A stretch of DNA of 64,000 nucleotides, from the IMG/VR virus record IMGVR_UViG_3300029374_000001, positions 196,161-260,160 of that record; one strand, written 5' to 3'. Origin of the DNA: a virus. The notes beneath the pieces were generated by a model. The model ran no database searches and was not told the DNA's origin. It worked only from the letters and a program-made list of their open reading frames with translations. Position 1 is the first letter of the stretch, and each line of letters starts with the position of its first letter. Of this stretch, positions 7,977-39,533 are shown piece by piece. A program made the position numbers and the translations under genes.

Positions 7977-8097
7977 ATCGTTTACTCCTTTTTAAAAATT
8001 AATGAATCAAAGTCAAGGAAGAGCAGATTAGACTGCTCTTCCCATTCTTCGATTTGTGTATTTATAGTTGTGTATATTTAGAGGAAATTAATTAGAC

Positions 8098-9006
8098 TTA
8101 TCCGACGTAAGTCTTGGTTTCTCCATTTTCAGGAGTTGCAACTGTTACATTCTGTGTTGCAGTTGCAGGCTTCGGAACAGCTACAGCAGTATTTTCTACT
8201 ACCTGACCACCAATGGGATTGGAAGCACCAGAGAATTGCTGTGCCTGATCTGCTCTATACTGCGGCATACCGGCCGGAGCATACTGAGGAGCAGGTGCCG
8301 GCTGCTGCGGATACTGCATCGGCGGCATAGGCTGCTGCTGAGGCATCTGGTTATACATCGGAGCCTGTGGCTGCATCTGCGGTGCAGGATACTGAGGTGC
8401 CATAGGAGCCGGATACTGCTGAGGCATCATCGGCTGCTGGAATCCTGCCGGATTAGCCATATAGGGATTCATACCGTTGCCGGAGAATACCTGGCTATAC
8501 ATACCGATGGTATTAAATCCATCATATCCACCCTGCATGTTCGGCTGAGCCTGCTGTGGTGCATAAGACTTAGCATAATCAGATGCAACTTTCCACATCT
8601 GAGGAATCTGACTCAGAACATAGAATGCCGGATAAATTCTCTTACCAGCTTCCGGATCGATACCACCATAATAGAACTTAATAGATTCTACGATGTCTTT
8701 CAGATCACTTATAGTCTGACTGATATCTGTTCCAGGTTCAACTGGTTTAAAACGTTCACCACAAATAGTACATTCATACACACCGTCTCCGATATGACGA
8801 ATTGTACCACGTCCATTGTCGTGGTGAACACACTTTGTCTTTAAGTTGTCAATAGGAGACATTGCTGTAAAGAACTCCTGTTTCTGCGGCGCTTTTTGCC
8901 GCAACAGTGCAATCTCTTCTGGGTTCAAAAGCTGATTGGTAGCGGGCGGTGTTGGAGCCTGCTGCGGATAAAATCCATACCCAGTCTGACCATAAAAATT
9001 CTCCAT
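8098..9006 (-). CDS. Low-complexity protein rich in Pro, Gln and Met, with an N-terminal Cys/His zinc-ribbon-like motif; 302 aa.
   Basis: It has CVHHDNGRGTIRHIGDGVYECTICGERF, followed by a C-terminal region PQQYPAPMAPQYPAPQMQPQAPMYNQMPQQQPMPPMQYPQQPAPAPQY. The DNA in that region is locally GC-rich with CTGCTG-type repeats. Confidence 0.55.
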   Translation of the reverse strand: MENFYGQTGYGFYPQQAPTPPATNQLLNPEEIALLRQKAPQKQEFFTAMSPIDNLKTKCVHHDNGRGTIRHIGDGVYECTICGERFKPVEPGTDISQTISDLKDIVESIKFYYGGIDPEAGKRIYPAFYVLSQIPQMWKVASDYAKSYAPQQAQPNMQGGYDGFNTIGMYSQVFSGNGMNPYMANPAGFQQPMMPQQYPAPMAPQYPAPQMQPQAPMYNQMPQQQPMPPMQYPQQPAPAPQYAPAGMPQYRADQAQQFSGASNPIGGQVVENTAVAVPKPATATQNVTVATPENGETKTYVG

Positions 9007-30282: not shown

Positions 30283-32349
30283 ATGGCAAATGATAACTTA
30301 TATTATGATAATGGCAATAAACTGGATCAATTATTGACTGAGAGTAATCTGAAAGACCATAATAATGATTCAGACGCACATAAATCTTTATTTGCCCAAT
30401 ATACAAAGAATAATCCGGTAGGCATTCATGGAGCTATGCATAAATTAGGTGTTAACTTTAAGCCTACGGATGAATCTACATTGGGCTTTGCTAAGTTGGG
30501 TAATTTCTGTTGCACATATACAACTCATAACTGTTTTACCAATCAGCCGTCTCAGTTTGGACAATTGCTTAGTTATCCGACAGACGTAGATCCTGCTAAG
30601 AGTAATGATATCCGAGTAACCCAGATATGGTTTGATGGATATAATGGAGATGTCTTTACACGTACTGGAACTAAGAATAATCCAATTAAAGATTTAGTGT
30701 TCAGTAGATTCTATCTAGTTACAGATGAATTCAATCGATCTGGTACAGAATTTCCAATGGCTGGATTGATTCCTGGTATGTTGTATTATAGAACTGACGA
30801 ACAGAAGCTGTATATATTACAGAAGATGCCGGCCGTATGGAAAGAAGTCATTGATACATCTTTGACCTCTGGTGTAGCATCTTCTTTATCTCATGCTTGG
30901 TGGAAATTAGATAATACCAATGACGATAAGTCTGTTTATAGATTTAAGAAGAATGAAGATTTAAATACATATACAACTCCTGGTTGTTATGCATCCATTG
31001 GTTCTGCATATTCTGCTACTTTGAAACATTGCCCCTATACAGCTGGTAACTTTAGATTGGTCGTACAGGAAAATGTTAAAGGTTGGGGTATGCAATTCTT
31101 ATATGCCGGCAACCAGAATGAATTATACACCAGAGGATTTTCTAAATCTCCAGATGGTACTACATATGTATTTACCAACTGGGATAAACAGATGAAATAC
31201 TCTGATACAATTTCTCATGCTGTTATAGCAGATGCTGATAAATATGGTAAGCAGATTGATAAAACATATGTAAAGCTAATTGGTGGTGTAATGGAAGGTG
31301 CATTGGATGTCAGAGATCGTTTAGGATTATATGATTCCGAAATGACCTTTGGTAATCCTCCGGCAGTAAGTACTTTCAATAATTTATTCTTCTATGATAG
31401 AAATATGAATCCGATGGAAGTTATATCTTCTCGATACGACCCAGATGGTTCTCATTATATATGCTTTGGGTCGTATAAGTCTAAAGACGATAATACATTG
31501 AATTTACTCTCTCTTGGTTGGAGTGCCTCTGGTACTCCCCAAGCATTGCTGAAATCTGATATAATATTTAATGGCAATATTAATTGTGATAGAGATATTA
31601 CGGCTCAGACATTCCATGGAACGATTGATAAAGCGGAAAAGATTGAAACAACAGCCCCTGTAAATTCTGCCGTTGATTTAATTAGAGCGGGAATGGCTGG
31701 TACTGATGCATTCAGAATTAGAATTGGTGATTCTGGTAGTGATACTGGATGGGCAGAAATAGCTACATCAGATGATGGTAATGAGCCAATTTACGTTCGC
31801 CAATATACAAAAGCGACCGCAGCTCCCAATGGATCATTCTCTACTGTAAAACGCTCTGCCACACTCTTGGATGCTAATGGGGATACTGTATTCCCTGGTG
31901 TACTGACTGCACAGAAATGCGTCAATGCTATCTATAATGACTATGCAGAATTCTTTGAAAGAGGAGAAGATACAGAAGCAGGAGATATTATTGCGTTAGA
32001 TTTAACTTCTGATGAAGAAAAATATATTAAGGCAACTAAAGATTCTTCTGTTGTAGTTGGTGTACACTCTGATGAGTTTGCTTATGTTATTGGTGGTATG
32101 ACTCCAGATGATACAAGAGATATTGTATCCTTTAATATGGAGAAGTATATTCCAGTTGCATTAATGGGTCGTGTTCATGTTAAAGTTGCCGGAGAAGTTC
32201 ATAAGGGAGATAAGATCATTCCTTCCGATTTGGCTGGTGTCGGCAAAATCGCAAAGCCAGGCGATGATATAACCCATTATGTAGGAATTTGCTTAGAAGA
32301 TAACAAAGATACAGAAATTAGAAAAGTTAGAATGCTTGTTAGGAGATAA
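30283..32349 (+). CDS. Tail/virion structural protein, 688 aa.
   Basis: It is an ORF with the SD GAGGTGA and sits within the structural operon. Confidence 0.5.
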   Translation: MANDNLYYDNGNKLDQLLTESNLKDHNNDSDAHKSLFAQYTKNNPVGIHGAMHKLGVNFKPTDESTLGFAKLGNFCCTYTTHNCFTNQPSQFGQLLSYPTDVDPAKSNDIRVTQIWFDGYNGDVFTRTGTKNNPIKDLVFSRFYLVTDEFNRSGTEFPMAGLIPGMLYYRTDEQKLYILQKMPAVWKEVIDTSLTSGVASSLSHAWWKLDNTNDDKSVYRFKKNEDLNTYTTPGCYASIGSAYSATLKHCPYTAGNFRLVVQENVKGWGMQFLYAGNQNELYTRGFSKSPDGTTYVFTNWDKQMKYSDTISHAVIADADKYGKQIDKTYVKLIGGVMEGALDVRDRLGLYDSEMTFGNPPAVSTFNNLFFYDRNMNPMEVISSRYDPDGSHYICFGSYKSKDDNTLNLLSLGWSASGTPQALLKSDIIFNGNINCDRDITAQTFHGTIDKAEKIETTAPVNSAVDLIRAGMAGTDAFRIRIGDSGSDTGWAEIATSDDGNEPIYVRQYTKATAAPNGSFSTVKRSATLLDANGDTVFPGVLTAQKCVNAIYNDYAEFFERGEDTEAGDIIALDLTSDEEKYIKATKDSSVVVGVHSDEFAYVIGGMTPDDTRDIVSFNMEKYIPVALMGRVHVKVAGEVHKGDKIIPSDLAGVGKIAKPGDDITHYVGICLEDNKDTEIRKVRMLVRR

Positions 32350-32354
32350 TATAA

Positions 32355-33467
32355 ATGGGTAAGTTTTTAAAAAGACAAACCAAAACCATTTTTATTATGC
32401 TTGGGAATGGATGTAACTTATCCTGTATATATTGCTTACAGCATCCACTGGTTCATAAGCCACTGTCTAATAAGATCAATCCAGATATTTATGAGTTTAT
32501 CAAAGAATGTAACGAAGAGAACGGGAAAGATCATCCCGTTCATCTTCAATTCTTTGGTGGAGAACCATTGGTATATTATCCTAATATAGAAGAAATCGTA
32601 GAAGCGACTAAAGATATAGGATGTACATATTCTGTTATTACTAATGGGAAATTGATGAACGATCATATGGTTGAATTTTTTAATAAGAATAACTTTTGGG
32701 TAACTATCTCTTGGGATGGGCCTAATGTTATGAAAACCAGAGGATTTGATGCATTTGATTCGTCCTCCCCATTAAGACGTAGACTATTGCGTTTAGACCA
32801 TCTATCTATTTCTGCGGTTATGTCATCTAAAGCATATCCAAAAGAAATTTTAGAAGGTATGCAAGAGATCTCCAACCAATATTATAAACTCAAAGGATAT
32901 CAAGTAGGAATCAATATTGATCAGATCTTTGATACAGGAATAACAAACAAAGAAATTCTGGATGTAGACTATCAAAGAGTCAGAGATGAAATAGAAGAGA
33001 TGGGAAAAGAATTCTTATTAGATACAATCAACTCCAAATATTCCAGAGAATCCTATACAAAGACAATGTTTATTCAAGATCTCTATAACCATATCAATCA
33101 ATTCTACGGTAAACAAAATGGTGTATGGAATAAATATTACTGCAATTGTGGTAATGGATATGCTATATTGAATATGGATTTAGAAGGAAATCTGTATACT
33201 TGTCATAATACTTCTACTAAGGTTGGGACAATATATACTCCCTATTTCCAATATCTGAATGAGGTGTTGAAAACAGATTATACAGACCATATGAGATCTA
33301 CTTGTAAAGATTGTGTTGCTTTGGCATTCTGTAATGGTGGATGTAAGTTAGTTTCTGAGCAAGCCAGAGAAGAAACATATTGCAAATTAAAAAAAGCTGT
33401 ATTTGAGCCTATGTTGAATTTAATACAAGAATATGGGAAAATGGTAGGTGAGTCAAAAAATGCCTAA
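32355..33467 (+). CDS. Radical SAM enzyme with a C-terminal SPASM domain (a peptide/protein-modifying maturase), 370 aa.
   Basis: It has GNGCNLSCIYC (CxxxCxxC), FFGGEPL (the GGE motif) and ITNG. The SPASM cysteine cluster is CNCGNGYAILNMDLEGNLYTCHN ... CKDCVALAFCNGGC. Confidence 0.85.
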   Translation: MGKFLKRQTKTIFIMLGNGCNLSCIYCLQHPLVHKPLSNKINPDIYEFIKECNEENGKDHPVHLQFFGGEPLVYYPNIEEIVEATKDIGCTYSVITNGKLMNDHMVEFFNKNNFWVTISWDGPNVMKTRGFDAFDSSSPLRRRLLRLDHLSISAVMSSKAYPKEILEGMQEISNQYYKLKGYQVGINIDQIFDTGITNKEILDVDYQRVRDEIEEMGKEFLLDTINSKYSRESYTKTMFIQDLYNHINQFYGKQNGVWNKYYCNCGNGYAILNMDLEGNLYTCHNTSTKVGTIYTPYFQYLNEVLKTDYTDHMRSTCKDCVALAFCNGGCKLVSEQAREETYCKLKKAVFEPMLNLIQEYGKMVGESKNA

Positions 33468-33741
33468 AAATGGAAATATACCTCAAACAGTATTCTCTAA
33501 TGGAAATCAAGGAGATATTGTTAAGAAAGCATCTATACAGGAAATACGGAATGCATTAGATGCTTTGAACAATACATATGCTGCCAATGTAGATAATTGT
33601 GGAAATTGTACTTTTTGTCAAACCTGCCAGACTCAATCTTGTCAAGGATGCCAAGTGTGCCAATCTTGCCAGACAGTACATTGGATAGAGCAATGCCCAT
33701 CTAAAGATTGTAATTGTGTAGATGACGCTGGTTCGGGTTAA
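33460..33741 (+). CDS. Cys-rich CQxCQ-repeat peptide A, 93 aa, a candidate RiPP-like precursor or substrate peptide.
   Basis: The SD AGGTGAG precedes the ATG at 33460, and the start overlaps the radical SAM gene's stop by 8 nt. The core is CGNCTFCQTCQTQSCQGCQVCQSCQT...CPSKDCNC and the tail is DDAGSG. The leader helix IQEIRNALDAL is shared with peptide B. Confidence 0.6.
   Translation: MPKNGNIPQTVFSNGNQGDIVKKASIQEIRNALDALNNTYAANVDNCGNCTFCQTCQTQSCQGCQVCQSCQTVHWIEQCPSKDCNCVDDAGSG
33598..33676 (+). repeat. Tandem roughly 9-nt TGYCARNNN coding repeats within peptide A.
   Basis: The DNA reads tgtcaaacctgccagactcaatcttgtcaaggatgccaagtgtgccaatcttgccagaca. Confidence 0.6.
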
Positions 33742-33752
33742 GAGGTGATATT

Positions 33753-34109
33753 ATGGGATATACAGATCCAGATTTAACTGGTAAACCAATAAAACGACAG
33801 CATTTAGAAGAACTCAAAACGGCTATAACTACATTAAGTTCATCTAAAAAAGTTTCTGTACCGATTAATATCTCTTCTTCTGATAAAGTAACCTCTGCAA
33901 ATGTAAAAGCATTGCAGAATGCAATTCATAGTTTACAAACCAAGTTCTCCAATAATTGCTGTCAAGCCAATTGCTGTCAGACTTGCCAGGTTTGTCAAGG
34001 ATGTCAAACCTGCCAGGGTTGTCAGACATGTCAAAGTTGCCAAACCAATAAAGAATGTTATAATCCAAACTGCGATTGCAACTGTGGAGATGATGGAGGA
34101 GGAGGTTAA
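33753..34109 (+). CDS. Cys-rich CQxCQ-repeat peptide B, 118 aa, paralogous to peptide A.
   Basis: It has the SD AAGAGGTGATATTATG. The core is NNCCQANCCQTCQVCQGCQTCQGCQTCQSCQT...CYNPNCDCNCGDDGGGG and the leader motif is ANVKALQNAIHSLQ. Confidence 0.6.
   Translation: MGYTDPDLTGKPIKRQHLEELKTAITTLSSSKKVSVPINISSSDKVTSANVKALQNAIHSLQTKFSNNCCQANCCQTCQVCQGCQTCQGCQTCQSCQTNKECYNPNCDCNCGDDGGGG
33955..34045 (+). repeat. Tandem TGYCARNNN coding repeats within peptide B.
   Basis: The DNA reads tgctgtcagacttgccaggtttgtcaaggatgtcaaacctgccagggttgtcagacatgtcaaagttgccaaacc. Confidence 0.6.
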
Positions 34110-34489
34110 TGATGATTATTTCTGGACAAATTTTAACAATAGATGGACCGAAAGATCTGAAAGATGTTACCAAGTTGGATTGGGTTCTCTCGGGTACTAT
34201 TCCTACCAGAATTATAGATATACAGAAAACAACTGTTAAGACATATAAAACGTTCTCTACTGTTCCCACTCTATGGGTTGGTAAAGATACAAAAATGAAG
34301 ACCATACATGGGTTGATGAATATGAAAAATAAAGATGAAGCTGATTTAACCAGACCATATACAACAGATATTCATGTAGCGGCTTCTATTAAAAAATCTG
34401 ATGAAGAATTAACTGGGTATATCTTTAAATTAGCCAATGGAAGTCATACCATCGTTGTAGAGAACTGTGAGGTTGAATGCGATGCTTAA
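34109..34489 (+). CDS. Hypothetical protein, 126 aa, with the C-terminus ENCEVECDA. It is co-operonic with the radical SAM/peptide genes.
   Basis: It is an ORF whose start overlaps the peptide B stop (TAATG). Confidence 0.45.
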   Translation: MMIISGQILTIDGPKDLKDVTKLDWVLSGTIPTRIIDIQKTTVKTYKTFSTVPTLWVGKDTKMKTIHGLMNMKNKDEADLTRPYTTDIHVAASIKKSDEELTGYIFKLANGSHTIVVENCEVECDA

Positions 34490-35318
34490 GATATTATTTA
34501 ATAAAGATAGCACAGATACTCATTTGAAATATAATATGGATTTATTAGGAACCTTTCTTTCTCTACGCTGCGAAAATACGGATCCTGCTTATTTAGCTTC
34601 TGGTAGAGATGGAGTAGAAGTATTGGATTCTTATACTTCCTATGTATTTGTAAACAATCCAAATTCTATTGTAAAGAACTTTAGAGTTCCTACTAAGTCC
34701 GCTTATAAGTTTTTAAATATGAATCGTCTTGGCGTAGCTATTCGAATGGATTATTCTGATATGGCACAATTATTCTCTAATGGAGATACTATGTGCCAGA
34801 TAGATACCGGAATGATTTCCAGTACAGAGAAAGATATTATCATTAGATTCTTTGTAGGAACAAAAGCTAACTTTAATATCCAAACAGATATGGATGTAGA
34901 GTATGGTGAGTTCAGTTCTGCAGATTTGCCTTCCCAAAGTCATCCAAGAGCGACACTTTGGGATAGCTATTCTTTGAAAATAGACGATATTGAGTATAAG
35001 GCCGATAGGTATGGGAATGGTGTACAAGGAACGTTCCAAACGCCCATTTCTTATAAAAACGTACCGATTGAATTAACTATTCAAAAGTATAAAGGAAACT
35101 TCTCTGCAACTAAATTAACCAGAGATATAGATTGTGAAGATGTATTAATAGATTGCTCTTGTGGTGTATTGGATACTAAGAGAGTTTCTTTAAATAAAGG
35201 AATAGCTAAAGTCCATTTATATCCATTTGACTACTCTGGTAAAGTAAAAATTAAGTTGGGCAGAAAATGGTATGAAGTATGGAATGAATATAATTTAATC
35301 TTAGAGAAGAAGCCATGA
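34467..35318 (+). CDS. Hypothetical protein, 283 aa.
   Basis: It is an ORF with a 4-nt overlap with the downstream radical SAM gene. Confidence 0.5.
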   Translation: MRLNAMLKILFNKDSTDTHLKYNMDLLGTFLSLRCENTDPAYLASGRDGVEVLDSYTSYVFVNNPNSIVKNFRVPTKSAYKFLNMNRLGVAIRMDYSDMAQLFSNGDTMCQIDTGMISSTEKDIIIRFFVGTKANFNIQTDMDVEYGEFSSADLPSQSHPRATLWDSYSLKIDDIEYKADRYGNGVQGTFQTPISYKNVPIELTIQKYKGNFSATKLTRDIDCEDVLIDCSCGVLDTKRVSLNKGIAKVHLYPFDYSGKVKIKLGRKWYEVWNEYNLILEKKP

Positions 35319-36289
35319 AATCTATCAGCATATATTTAGGCAGTAAGTGTAACATGAATTGTTCTTATTGCCATAGAATAGAATCTGAAGAAGAAAACCA
35401 TATTTCAGATGAGCTCATTGCTCATCTGAAGTCTATGGGCAAAATTCATATTAGTTTTTTTGGTGGAGAACCTACTCTATATATGGATGATATCAAAAGA
35501 GTAGTAGAAGCTATGCCAGAAAATTCATATAGAATTACAACCAATGGAATTCTCTTTGATAAATATAGAGAATTCTTTTTAAAATATAATTTCAAAGTGG
35601 CATTTTCTTATGATGGAAATAATGCATTACGTTCTAAAGATATTTTAGATCATCCAATAGAATATCCATTTGTTAATATCTCTTGTACTCTCTTTCATGG
35701 AAATACAGATTTAGAATATATTATGCATCAATTTAATGAGAAAGAGAAAGTCATATCAGTCAGACTTTCTTTATATCCTCATATCATGCATATGACTTCA
35801 GAGTCTAATAAACCATATGCATTAACCAGAGAAGATTATACTTCTTTGATTGAACAAATCAAAACCTATGTATCCAAATATGTTATAGATTTTGAGAAAT
35901 ATGGTATTATGAATTATAGAATTAATGGACTATTCATATTGGTTAATTCTTTATTGAATAATAACTATGAATATGGTGAAACCTATTGTGTTCATCGTAA
36001 TATAAAGAAAATAGATACATCTGGAAAAATGTATACTTGTTTATATATGAGAGATGATCAACTATTTCCAGATACATGGCAACAAGATTTAGCCAATGTC
36101 ATTGATAAGACCTTTACAGATTGTAAAACATGTTCTTATTATAGATATTGTGGTTCTGCTTGTGTTAAATCTAAAGAACATGAGTTAGAATGTTATTTCT
36201 ATAAGAGACTCATTATTTGGGGATTACAATTTAGAAACCATCATAAAGAAGCTTTTCAAGAATTATCTAAGATCATTAGGAGGAAATAA
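35315..36289 (+). CDS. Second radical SAM enzyme with a SPASM domain, 324 aa.
   Basis: It has GSKCNMNCSYC, FFGGEPT and TTNG. The SPASM cluster is CVHRN...YTCLY ... CKTCSYYRYCGSAC. Confidence 0.85.
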   Translation: MKSISIYLGSKCNMNCSYCHRIESEEENHISDELIAHLKSMGKIHISFFGGEPTLYMDDIKRVVEAMPENSYRITTNGILFDKYREFFLKYNFKVAFSYDGNNALRSKDILDHPIEYPFVNISCTLFHGNTDLEYIMHQFNEKEKVISVRLSLYPHIMHMTSESNKPYALTREDYTSLIEQIKTYVSKYVIDFEKYGIMNYRINGLFILVNSLLNNNYEYGETYCVHRNIKKIDTSGKMYTCLYMRDDQLFPDTWQQDLANVIDKTFTDCKTCSYYRYCGSACVKSKEHELECYFYKRLIIWGLQFRNHHKEAFQELSKIIRRK

Positions 36290-36972
36290 TGCATTTATTT
36301 GTATTTGATGATGCTGTCAGAAAAACAGATCTGAAAGAGAATATCAAACTGAATATATATGATGATCATATTTTTCATTTCTTCCATAATGATCACAAGT
36401 TAATTATAGATACAGATTTATTAAGAGATGGATCCAGTACAATAGTTCTATATAGTCAAGCAACAGACAATACTTATGTATTATATGACTTTAGAGAATT
36501 ATTAGAGATTTTAGATATGACTCCAAAAGAAATGCTGACCAATCTCAATCAAAAAGGATTCATGCAAATTGATAAATGTAATAACAATACATTTATTAAA
36601 GTTTTCTTGCTTAGAGGAGAAACAGAGCTATCTAGCGATACTCATAACTTTGCTTCCTATAAGCATTATACCATAGATTATATTCATCCGTTGGATTGGA
36701 AATATAGCTGGACAATTCATGATGCAAAAGCTGTGTTGTCTGAAGACTATAAAAAAGTAACCATATCTTTCAATATGAAACGTTCTGATTTCTGGATAAA
36801 AGATTTATATATCTCTCATGCTGGTCAGACAGAAAAAATAAAAGAGGGATACAATGAAGTTACTTTTACTTATATAGAAACAGAAGATGTTTATTTTGGA
36901 AATCCTAATTGTCATTATAAAGGAAGATGTTTGAATCTGACCAGATTACTCTATGAAACCAACCTAAAGTGA
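36289..36972 (+). CDS. Hypothetical protein, 227 aa, the last gene of the radical SAM cluster.
   Basis: It is an ORF with the SD AGGAGGAAATAATG, and its start overlaps the radical SAM gene's stop. Confidence 0.5.
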   Translation: MHLFVFDDAVRKTDLKENIKLNIYDDHIFHFFHNDHKLIIDTDLLRDGSSTIVLYSQATDNTYVLYDFRELLEILDMTPKEMLTNLNQKGFMQIDKCNNNTFIKVFLLRGETELSSDTHNFASYKHYTIDYIHPLDWKYSWTIHDAKAVLSEDYKKVTISFNMKRSDFWIKDLYISHAGQTEKIKEGYNEVTFTYIETEDVYFGNPNCHYKGRCLNLTRLLYETNLK

Positions 36973-37045
36973 GATATTCCTATAAAGGAATATCTCTTTT
37001 ATTCCAGTCAACATTTCAGTAAATTCATGAATTTATATAGAGAGG

Positions 37046-38785: not shown

Positions 38786-38798
38786 TATATAGTAGTGT

Positions 38799-38825
38799 AA
38801 GAGAGGTCTTCTATAGACCTCTCTT
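38799..38825 (+). terminator. Intrinsic terminator hairpin aagagaggtcTTCTATagacctctctt followed by ATTTTTAT.
   Basis: It has a 10-bp stem and a T-run, and lies immediately after the tail-fibre gene's stop. Confidence 0.6.
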
Positions 38826-38856
38826 ATTTTTATAATTAGGAGGACTAACAATTGAA

Positions 38857-39468
38857 ATGGATAAATTTAAAGAATATATTAAGCTCAATGATCGTAGTCT
38901 GTGGTATCTTGTCCTCGGTATCGTTATCATATGCGGAATCATTGGATACTACATCTTCCACTACAACGACCATGGAACTGGTGAACAAATTAGAGATACA
39001 ATACAACAATCAAAGTCAGAAAATGCTAAAACTAAAGACGCAGTACGAAGAGCTACAGACTCAGTTCGATCTGCTTCAAAAACAGCTGGAGGCATCTCAG
39101 ATACAAATACGGAATTACAAAGACAACAACGTAAATCAGCAGAAACAATACAATCTGCTGCAGACCAATTACGAGATGCTCAAAGCACAGCTAAAGACCT
39201 CGAAAGAACTCTCTCAGAAGCAGAATCAACAACTGCAGAACTTGACAGGACTTTTGAACAGCTTAAAGTATTACAATCAGACGGAACAAAATCTATCGAC
39301 GCAGCAGAGTCAGCAAATCATTCAGCTTATGACACAGCTCATGGAATCCGAGAGAAACTTAATGGAAGCCAACAACAGTTTAGAGAATATGAAGAAGCTG
39401 ATCGAGAAATTAGAAACACAATTCAACGATTACGAGAAGTGGGTCAAGAGAACGGAACGCAGACATAA
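38857..39468 (+). CDS. Membrane-anchored (one N-terminal transmembrane helix) coiled-coil/low-complexity protein, 203 aa.
   Basis: It has the SD AGGAGGA and the transmembrane segment LWYLVLGIVIICGIIGYYIF. Its third codon positions are A/T-rich, matching the genome's codon bias. This frame is therefore preferred over the overlapping +2-frame ORF at 38852..39532. Confidence 0.5.
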   Translation: MDKFKEYIKLNDRSLWYLVLGIVIICGIIGYYIFHYNDHGTGEQIRDTIQQSKSENAKTKDAVRRATDSVRSASKTAGGISDTNTELQRQQRKSAETIQSAADQLRDAQSTAKDLERTLSEAESTTAELDRTFEQLKVLQSDGTKSIDAAESANHSAYDTAHGIREKLNGSQQQFREYEEADREIRNTIQRLREVGQENGTQT

Positions 39469-39533
39469 ATACCAAAAGATTCTTATTGGTATGATAGCTA
39501 CCGGGGCTGGTTATTCATTGGGGAATATGTAAT

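Follow-up and report, generated by a model that had tools for sequence, protein, structure and literature searches.

Paired Cys-Gln-Rich Proteins and SPASM Radical-SAM Enzymes in a Phage Tail-Fibre Cassette: Candidate Crosslinked Fibre-Like Proteins

Two Paralogous Cys-Gln-Rich Proteins in a Tail-Fibre Gene Run

The window analysed here is a 64,000-nucleotide stretch of phage DNA with a GC content of 33% (IMG/VR record IMGVR_UViG_3300029374_000001, positions 196,161 to 260,160), in which large fibre genes, all on one strand, span ~24.9 to 38.8 kb. Within that run stand two short genes, pepA and pepB, which encode Cys/Gln-rich proteins and are flanked by genes for two radical S-adenosylmethionine (SAM) enzymes of the SPASM class, rSAM1 and rSAM2. 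We find that the two proteins are paralogous members of an uncharacterised family, that their genes are inherited together with rSAM1 and a fibre chaperone domain, and that related proteins carry the terminal modules of phage fibres. We therefore propose, with a probability of about one half, that pepA and pepB are small fibre-like structural or accessory tail-fibre proteins crosslinked by radical-SAM chemistry rather than precursors of secreted peptides.

Comparative sequence analysis identifies pepA and pepB as real coding genes. Both open reading frames (ORFs) lie where a preliminary description of this DNA had placed them and encode the sequences given there (Table 1); the ATG start of pepA is backed by a conserved N-terminus among its homologues, and purine-rich ribosome-binding sites are found a few bases 5' of both starts. 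Measured against a relative at 81-84% identity (L019), the ratio of nonsynonymous to synonymous change (dN/dS) is 0.13 for pepA and 0.07 for pepB, comparable to the 0.05-0.13 of the neighbouring genes, and synonymous change within the cores is saturated. The sense frame is the only stop-free frame in all six relatives compared, so that the long ORFs in the minus (33865..34305) and alternative plus-strand frames (33919..34239), already suspected to be spurious, are by-products. A search of 5.8 billion proteins returned 66 pepB homologue clusters (99-146 aa, 30-96% identity), in whose alignment the Cys and Gln columns are invariant, and a profile search of 1.84 billion representatives at E<=1e-3 retrieved 168 family representatives, most of them 70-170 aa long, which puts the family at no fewer than 168 representative clusters; A-type homologues, resembling pepA, are P0040-43, P0052 and P0057. 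The repeats do yield long spurious ORFs in other frames, as would be expected if they were non-coding or slippage-prone simple DNA and their ORFs artefacts, but this reading, to which we attach practically no weight, is refuted by the homologue alignment, by dN/dS and by the openness of the sense frame alone, and the repeat units are only 66% identical at the DNA level.

The proposed paralogy of the two proteins is borne out by a BLASTP match at E=4e-8 and by alignments in which both show the motif N[IV]xxLQxAIxxL, followed by a core of Cys-Gln units and by a tail that runs from CxCNC through acidic residues to Gly. A single helical motif precedes the core of pepA (33598..33675), which is followed by the tail DCNCVDDAGSG; pepB has two helical motifs, an NNCCQANCCQ stretch, eight CQx units (33957..34046) and the tail NCDCNCGDDGGGG. 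In its extended form, N[IV]xxLQxAIxxLExxFS, the motif contains the invariant residues A57 and L61, and it is retained even in homologues fused to discoidin-like domains. A conserved, recognition-like segment thus stands directly 5' of a variable Cys core, an arrangement characteristic of the precursors of ribosomally synthesised and post-translationally modified peptides (RiPPs). The extreme N-termini (MAYTD... and MxKNGxI...) are conserved as well, and the junction between motif and core (FS-NNCC / NVDNCG) contains no Gly-Gly-type cleavage site. Neither protein matches any model in Pfam or NCBIfam, including SCIFF and other named Cys-rich precursor models, and the sole PHROG match is a weak one to phrog_36260, 'tail fiber protein' (E=0.0045). 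One family member (P0288, 173 aa) joins the N-terminal 118 residues of a homologue of the nearby protein p283 to an A-type CQ core and tail, a chimera that is likely a deletion or assembly artefact.

The Cys-Gln Dipeptide Is the Conserved Unit of the Core

Six-frame translation of the window gives a CQ background of 0.77 per 1000 residues, as opposed to 9 in 40 residues here, and holds no CQ cluster elsewhere; core and tail together are 28% Cys. Across the family, consecutive Cys residues are 3 positions apart in 48% of cases, 5 apart in 14%, and 1 or 2 apart in 11% each, while the residue after Cys is Gln in 63% and one of Q, N, D or E in 77%. The x of CQxC is T, G, S or K, each family member carries 5 to 16 CQ dipeptides, and Glu replaces Gln in some members, so that Q-to-E swaps are evidently tolerated. 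Because the Cys-Cys spacing varies and the dipeptide stays constant, the conserved unit is Cys-Gln and not the strict CQx triplet register put forward earlier: alignment with homologues shows the CQ dipeptide kept at a spacing of 3 or 5. A collagen-like triple-helical repeat was considered and rejected, since the core has no Gly at every third position and consists of Cys-Gln-x with a period alternating between 3 and 5.

At the DNA level, the 9-nt tandem repeats of the preliminary description are weak, Tandem Repeats Finder reporting for pepB only periods of 27 and 18 nt, at 71-80% matches, and for pepA none. The eight 9-nt units of pepB have a mean identity of 66%, with TGT/TGC and CAA/CAG codons mixed, and exactly eight CQx units are kept in relatives at 66-100% identity; the expected variation in repeat number is thus absent among close relatives and appears only across the wider family, in its range of 5 to 16. 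Of expansion and contraction by slippage, as had been suggested, these data give no active sign: with units so divergent and a count so constant, it is in the protein that the repetition is maintained. The profile also picked up a 530-aa protein with a C-terminal 'GCQGCQSCQGCQ...' tail (P0363, E=2.4e-4), which by eye resembles cobyrinic-acid a,c-diamide synthase; the weak match is probably compositional, and CQ repeats do occur outside phages.

rSAM1 Is the Constant Partner of the Pair

The tight linkage of two radical-SAM/SPASM enzymes to the peptide pair, noted at the outset, is confirmed by the wider comparison, in which rSAM1 lies upstream of the pair in all 71 loci with enough flanking sequence and is, to judge by this linkage, its universal partner. 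Both enzymes match Pfam Radical_SAM above its cutoff (rSAM1 E=6.8e-12, rSAM2 E=3.4e-10), and rSAM1 also matches the NCBIfam SPASM domain TIGR04085 (37.2 bits, cutoff 27). The CX3CX2C motif is invariant in both, at C20/C24/C27 of rSAM1 (44 homologues) and C12/C16/C19 of rSAM2 (40 homologues), and each has seven conserved SPASM cysteines (residues 265, 283, 317, 320, 326, 330 and 343 in rSAM1; 225, 242, 270, 273, 279, 283 and 293 in rSAM2) in the pattern C..G....C / CX2CX5CX3C / C associated with two auxiliary clusters. The families that score best with rSAM1 in NCBIfam are PapB, nif11 maturase, QhpD, anSME, SCIFF maturase and CcpM, all far under their cutoffs: against the 340 bits required for the PapB family NF047865, rSAM1 reaches 96.5 and rSAM2 65.6 bits, a likeness at superfamily level only, and QhpD, the third-best match of rSAM1, scores 86.8 bits against a cutoff of 453.

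The best match of rSAM1 in the PDB is CteB (5wgg), in an alignment that begins at CteB residue 95, and alignments of rSAM1 and rSAM2 with models containing a RiPP recognition element (RRE) and with CteB begin at residue 76-95, each of the two opening directly with its radical-SAM core. As this is past the RRE of CteB (PMC8326336), neither enzyme has an RRE, and the idea that such a region in the enzyme would bind the putative leader is not supported. The cassette encodes no separate PqqD-like RRE protein either, its other proteins being beta-sandwich or Hint-like.

Nor do the data support an assignment of one enzyme to each peptide, which the presence of two maturases had suggested. In systems with a single radical-SAM gene beside the A/B pair (L032, L101, L103, L104, L105), the enzyme is a full-length rSAM1 orthologue at 30-54% identity, and rSAM1 thus serves as the lone enzyme alongside both peptides; rSAM2 is absent from these reduced systems and travels with p283 and its companion p227. 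Taken together, these linkages point to the Cys-rich proteins as the likeliest substrates of the radical-SAM enzymes.

A Conserved Module in Phages of Negativicutes

The conserved module comprises a fibre Peptidase_G2 domain, rSAM1, pepA, pepB, a Hint-like gene, p283, rSAM2 and p227 (Table 1). We collected 75 loci, many of them closely related and including near-identical prophages, and the following counts refer to this set: both A- and B-type peptides are present in 70 of the 75, p283, rSAM2 and p227 lie downstream in 63 of 68, and the C-terminal domain of the fibre is shared by 69 of 71. In prophage-like regions the cassette follows the tape-measure, Dit, Tal and fibre genes and precedes the holin and amidase/endolysin genes. 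The same cassette occurs in relatives of the window phage, and IMG/VR contributes 51 loci, among them viral sequences of 216 and 261 kb whose pepB is 97-99% identical, which indicates a jumbo phage as the source of the window. Species-representative genomes, when scanned, place the cassette in Acidaminococcus, Megasphaera, Dialister, Succiniclasticum and Selenomonadaceae, and Phascolarctobacterium is among the sources of p283 and p227 homologues; prophage loci include L091 of Megasphaera sueciensis TMW 2.2488 (NZ_CP116939) and L090 and L097 of Acidaminococcus massiliensis/fermentans, and Phascolarctobacterium faecium is a further prophage host; the identified hosts are all Negativicutes and strict anaerobes. 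No match was found among the 50,697 GenBank phages of INPHARED with the cassette (megablast) or with pepB and p283 (tblastn), these phages containing only distant radical-SAM homologues. The peptides, p283 and p227 belong to no Pfam, NCBIfam or PHROG family; the family is uncharacterised, and a literature search on phage radical-SAM enzymes with fibres, thioethers or RiPPs found no description of this system.

Table 1. Genes and other features of the cassette in the window
Feature	Coordinates	Strand	Basis or remark
Tail fibre, 688 aa	30283..32349	+	Upstream neighbour of rSAM1
Fibre C-terminal ~160 aa, Peptidase_G2-type intramolecular-chaperone/autocleavage domain (putative)	31870..32349	+	Homology, weak Pfam match
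rSAM1, 370 aa, radical-SAM/SPASM	32355..33467	+	Pfam, NCBIfam
pepA, A-type Cys/Gln-rich protein, 93 aa	33460..33741	+	Homologue alignments, dN/dS
pepB, B-type Cys/Gln-rich protein, 118 aa	33753..34109	+	Homologue alignments, dN/dS
Hint-like protein, 126 aa, without catalytic Cys1	34109..34489	+	Homologues' near-cutoff Hint_2 matches
p283, all-beta, immunoglobulin-like/beta-sandwich domains, 278 aa from conserved MLKIL start	34482..35318	+	Predicted fold
rSAM2, 324 aa, second radical-SAM/SPASM, distant rSAM1 paralogue, accessory part of module	35315..36289	+	Pfam
p227, conserved two-domain beta-sandwich protein	36289..36972	+	Predicted fold
Terminator-like hairpin ending the cassette	36971..36996	+	11-bp stem, then T-run, directly 3' of p227

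The genes from the fibre to p227 are tightly packed and overlapping, and a terminator scan found no terminator-like site between the fibre gene and p227. A promoter-like site within pepB (34037..34064) was dismissed as chance, as 49 such sites were seen and 51 expected. The ATG of the Hint-like gene overlaps the pepB stop codon (TAATG), and the codons of the pepB Gly tail (GGAGGAGGAGGT) double as a strong Shine-Dalgarno sequence for that gene (34095..34111), so that part of the Gly tail may reflect translational coupling.

The gene 5' of rSAM1 varies between 477 and 867 aa, and the final ~160 residues, at 44-54% identity, are the only part of the fibre common to the window and to the upstream genes of the prophage and viral loci. 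In the window the Peptidase_G2 match of this region is weak (E=2.8e-5, 24.1 bits, cutoff 25), and a stand-alone homologue in L032 clears the cutoff at 26.3 bits; by homology, the shared fibre C-terminus is a Peptidase_G2 autocleaving chaperone domain co-inherited with the cassette.

The 126-aa protein encoded after pepB starts with MMIISGQILTIDG, has no Cys1 and no Pfam match of its own. Its L003 homologue comes close to Pfam Hint_2 (E=5.9e-6, 27.2 bits, cutoff 28.4), and towards its N-terminus the protein can be aligned with the Hint domain of an Achromobacter phage fibre. As a separate gene product devoid of Cys1, it is incapable of self-cleavage in cis, and it may act in trans as a chaperone. 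The remaining two proteins, p283 (113 homologue clusters, predicted model with mean pLDDT confidence of 91.6) and p227 (46 clusters, 93.9), are predicted beta-sandwiches, a fold on which we rejected them as candidates for an RRE, a protease or an enzyme; the full-length Foldseek analogues of p283 are exclusively uncharacterised phage proteins. Homologue alignments reveal no conserved Cys in either, which leaves the cassette with no other obvious Cys substrate. Scans of Pfam, NCBIfam and PHROG returned no match for the Hint-like protein, p283 or p227, and detected no protease, exporter or immunity gene in the cassette.

Beyond the cassette, just past a terminator at 38797..38827, different plus-strand frames hold a pair of ORFs, each longer than 200 aa, that cover nearly the same DNA (38852..39532 and 38857..39468); one of them is Gln/Asn-rich and coiled-coil-like.

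Fibre-Type Fusions and Other Cys-Tailed Proteins

Several family members are fused to domains typical of fibres and adhesins. A Hint domain with Cys1 directly follows the CxC tail in nine proteins (P0232, P0245, P0264, P0283, P0328, P0342, P0347, P0354 and P0359), and Hint-fused A-type proteins are those of L101, L104 and L105 and, among the nine, P0328, P0342, P0347 and P0359. A C-terminal Peptidase_S74 domain is present in P0278 and in L105 (1489..2169), with a Pfam match at E=2.7e-14 and 53.6 bits against a cutoff of 22, and in five proteins (P0250, P0270, P0314, P0333, P0345) the N-terminus is a discoidin-like domain, 170-200 aa long, with a weak match to F5/8 type C. The Hint profile matches inteins (PI-SceI, 1e-8) and a bacterial intein-like (BIL) domain, and shows 29% identity to the end of the fibre of Achromobacter phage 2-1, where it follows the sequence 'NCNCDCNCSC'; Hint domains of the family's type also end phage proteins after collagen-like or poly-Gly stretches. 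S74 and Peptidase_G2 are maturation devices of fibre-type virion proteins, and the C-terminal Hint modules are, to judge by the phage proteins that end in them, fibre-type maturation devices likewise. The literature that we found on Hint domains and tail fibres concerned terminase inteins.

The reduced systems illustrate how these modules are combined. In the metagenomic locus L101, a fibre gene is followed by rSAM1, pepA::Hint, pepB::Hint (one Hint fusion lying at 8001..8858) and lysis genes, and L105 encodes pepB::S74, pepA::Hint and an rSAM1 orthologue. A further variant (L032, 8319..11466; also L025 and L058) consists of a stand-alone Peptidase_G2-like protein, rSAM1, pepA and pepB, followed by an ORF of 310 aa whose N-terminus is PP-loop-like, a pyridoxal-phosphate enzyme of Cys/Met metabolism (Pfam 1e-38) and a symporter of the sodium:dicarboxylate family (6e-63), extra genes that may supply cysteine for proteins so rich in it (28%).

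Cys-rich tails next to radical-SAM genes are also seen outside the family itself. The metagenomic locus L103 additionally encodes a fibre-like protein of 350 aa that ends in 'NVNDCNCSNCACNCSDNDEE' (with the tail NDCNCSNCACNCSDNDEE of the family) and is followed by three radical-SAM genes; the same arrangement of a fibre-like protein with a Cys-rich tail and three such genes (L103, 649..5342) recurs in L106 (1443..5147), where the tail is made of four copies of 'NYCTCNC'. Achromobacter phage 2-1 (L001, 3682..7188; also JWF, L068 and L071) encodes a 481-aa fibre-like protein ending in 'NCNCDCNCSC' and Hint, and two genes 3' of the fibre, just before the lysis genes, comes a 452-aa radical-SAM protein. 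These cases suggest a wider, undescribed association of Cys-tailed fibres with radical-SAM enzymes, of which the cultured Achromobacter phages are an experimentally tractable relative.

A Model of Crosslinked Fibre-Like Proteins and Its Alternatives

In the model that we favour, pepA and pepB would each consist of an N-terminal helical module, a rod or knot of Cys-Gln units and a CxCxC-acidic tail. Within the strictly anaerobic Negativicutes host, rSAM1, aided by rSAM2 in the full cassette, would convert the many cysteines into covalent, redox-insensitive crosslinks, of a kind that would be sensible for the particles of strict anaerobes. By analogy with the chemistry of QhpD, PapB and CteB, these would most likely be thioethers in which Cys is joined to a side-chain carbon of a neighbouring Gln, Asn, Asp or Glu, and they may be intra- or interchain. 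Once crosslinked, pepA and pepB, together with p283, p227 and the Hint-like protein, would be assembled onto the Peptidase_G2-bearing fibre, and in relatives a fused C-terminal Hint or S74 domain would take the role of the Hint-like protein and cut itself off after assembly. We infer the crosslink chemistry from the enzyme class, as thioether formers (PapB, QhpD, CteB) are among the best enzyme matches, and incorporation into the virion, oligomeric state and function from the gene setting and the fusions. We favour this model because the pair has its place among tail genes and travels with the chaperone domain of a fibre and with p283 and p227, because no protease, exporter or RRE accompanies it, and because of the fibre-type fusions. 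The constant linkage to rSAM1, the potential acceptors Q, N, D or E behind most Cys residues, the fibre-like protein with the family's tail beside three radical-SAM genes, and the strictly anaerobic hosts speak for it as well. A more daring version, which we advance tentatively and at somewhat short of even odds, holds that phages of strict anaerobes staple their tail fibres by radical-SAM chemistry, with ladders of Cys-to-Gln/Asn/Asp thioethers as a redox-proof substitute for disulfides, and that pepA and pepB form a covalent hetero-oligomeric mini-fibre, matured by Hint or S74 in relatives.

Several observations weigh against the model. The pepA and pepB of the window have no fused S74 or Hint domain, the separate Hint-like protein has no Cys1, and the beta-sandwich folds of p283 and p227 are generic. 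Presence of the two proteins in virions, their modification and a trimeric or fibrous geometry are postulates, and no isolated phage in INPHARED carries the cassette. With many near-identical prophages among the loci, the co-occurrence counts overstate the number of independent observations. Moreover, the small size of the proteins, the Cys-rich core behind a conserved helical segment, the pairing of two peptides with two radical-SAM enzymes and top matches to RiPP maturases are classic RiPP hallmarks.

These hallmarks could belong to a phage-encoded two-component RiPP whose helical N-termini are leaders and in which rSAM1 and rSAM2 install thioethers of the ranthipeptide or sactipeptide type, the products being freed by phage lysis to act as a bacteriocin, a signal or an anti-competitor factor. 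We consider this less probable than our model, but it is viable and the main alternative: the products have only 93 and 118 aa, their conserved helical segment directly precedes a core of hypervariable length, and two SPASM genes are tightly linked to them. The NCBIfam matches (PapB, nif11 maturase, QhpD, SCIFF maturase, CcpM) and the top PDB match, CteB, point the same way, and two peptides with two radical-SAM enzymes recall thuricin CD (PMC8326336). If the products were freed by lysis, no exporter would be needed, and the L032-type variant has further enzymes and a transporter after pepB. The leader-plus-core precursor of the preliminary description has its conserved segment before a variable core and is challenged on other grounds, since the cassette has no protease, exporter, immunity gene or RRE, whether in cis or as a PqqD-like protein. 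The family-specific NCBIfam scores lie far below their cutoffs, no known precursor family matches the peptides, and the extreme N-termini are conserved. Furthermore, fusions to S74, Hint and discoidin-like domains are unknown for RiPP precursors and typical of fibres and adhesins, and the cassette, part of a tail-fibre operon, is always found in the tail module, co-inherited with the fibre chaperone domain and the two beta-sandwich proteins.

Improbable, in our estimate, is a third reading, in which the Cys-rich proteins are metal- or Fe-S-binding fibre segments, or metallothionein-like, and the radical-SAM enzymes act on the fibre or on a small molecule. The CQ and CxC repeats would then coordinate metal ions one after another down the length of a fibre trimer, much as iron is bound by the HxH repeats of T4 gp37. 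The Cys content of core and tail, the regular CxxC and CxC spacing, the fibre context and the relatives with fibre-type fusions all suit such a role, and thiolate-metal centres would be stable in an anaerobic host. It leaves unexplained, however, the linkage of rSAM1 to the A/B pair in 71 of 71 loci, across systems otherwise unrelated in content, as well as the rule, almost without exception, that Cys is followed by Q, N, D or E, and it has to contend with p283 and p227, which without conserved Cys offer the enzymes no other obvious Cys substrate.

Comparison with Known Systems

Among characterised systems, ranthipeptides (PapA/PapB freyrasin, SCIFF CteA/CteB, NxxcA/NxxcB) resemble the present one in that a Cys-rich substrate adjoins a radical-SAM/SPASM enzyme, and the Gln, Asn, Asp or Glu beside Cys resemble the known Asp, Asn and Thr acceptors (PMC8326336). 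The differences lie in the enzyme score (96.5 against 340 bits), in the absence here of an RRE, protease or exporter, in the size and Cys content of the substrates (93-146 aa with 10-22 Cys), and in the setting, which is phage-borne, within a tail-fibre operon, and includes Hint- and S74-fused homologues. Thuricin CD (Trn-alpha/Trn-beta, TrnC/TrnD) likewise combines two paralogous Cys-containing peptides and two radical-SAM genes in one operon; here, by contrast, rSAM1 stands alone with both peptides in the reduced systems, ABC transporters are lacking, and the peptides are much larger, richer in Cys and encoded in a tail module. To our knowledge, Gln has never been reported as a thioether acceptor.

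Another parallel is QhpD, a SPASM radical-SAM enzyme that operates without RiPP logic and introduces several Cys-Asp and Cys-Glu thioethers into QhpC, the small gamma subunit of quinohemoprotein amine dehydrogenase, which remains built into a larger assembly of proteins (PMC8326336). Its substrate is thus a protein subunit, and only two NCBIfam families score better than QhpD with rSAM1. The score, however, reaches only 86.8 of the required 453 bits; unlike in that system, no dehydrogenase context is present, and the substrate is a CQ-repetitive A/B pair in a viral structural module.

On the structural side, a comparison can be drawn with self-cleaving fibres and tailspikes: Peptidase_S74 ends endosialidases and the T5 fibre, and Peptidase_G2 occurs in phi29 gp12. 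The family shares with them an N-terminal module, a repetitive rod and a C-terminal autoprocessing module, the last in the members that end in S74, and the cassette is co-inherited with the Peptidase_G2 domain of the neighbouring fibre. The pepA and pepB of the window differ from such fibres in having only 93 and 118 aa and no fused chaperone, and in a rod of Cys-Gln repeats rather than a beta-helix or collagen-like segment; the literature yielded no dedicated radical-SAM enzymes for any fibre. Hint/BIL domains are a match insofar as Cys1 of the relatives' Hint directly follows the CxC tail and the window encodes a Hint-like protein after pepB, unlike the relatives' domain separate, shorter (126 aa) and without Cys1. 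Finally, the HK97 capsid 'chainmail' consists of autocatalytic Lys-Asn isopeptide crosslinks. Covalent crosslinks would stabilise a component of the phage particle in both cases; the present one would rely on dedicated radical enzymes acting on Cys-rich proteins of the tail, as opposed to autocatalysis in the capsid.

Implications

Radical-SAM thioether chemistry is known from sactipeptides, ranthipeptides and one enzyme subunit, QhpC, and here enzymes of the same class are found within phage tail-fibre modules, beside proteins whose relatives have maturation domains characteristic of fibres. Were the products RiPPs after all, they would constitute a two-peptide natural product that phages carry and that is widespread among Negativicutes of the human gut. 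If pepA and pepB are instead crosslinked fibre-like proteins, virion assembly would gain an enzymatic covalent-crosslinking step and radical-SAM chemistry a new acceptor residue, Gln, and there would be an explanation for radical-SAM genes that have long been noted, without being understood, in the structural regions of phages, Achromobacter JWF-like ones among them. A stapled mini-fibre, if real, would for the first time show RiPP-type radical chemistry at work in the making of a virus particle, and would contain the first Cys-Gln thioether.

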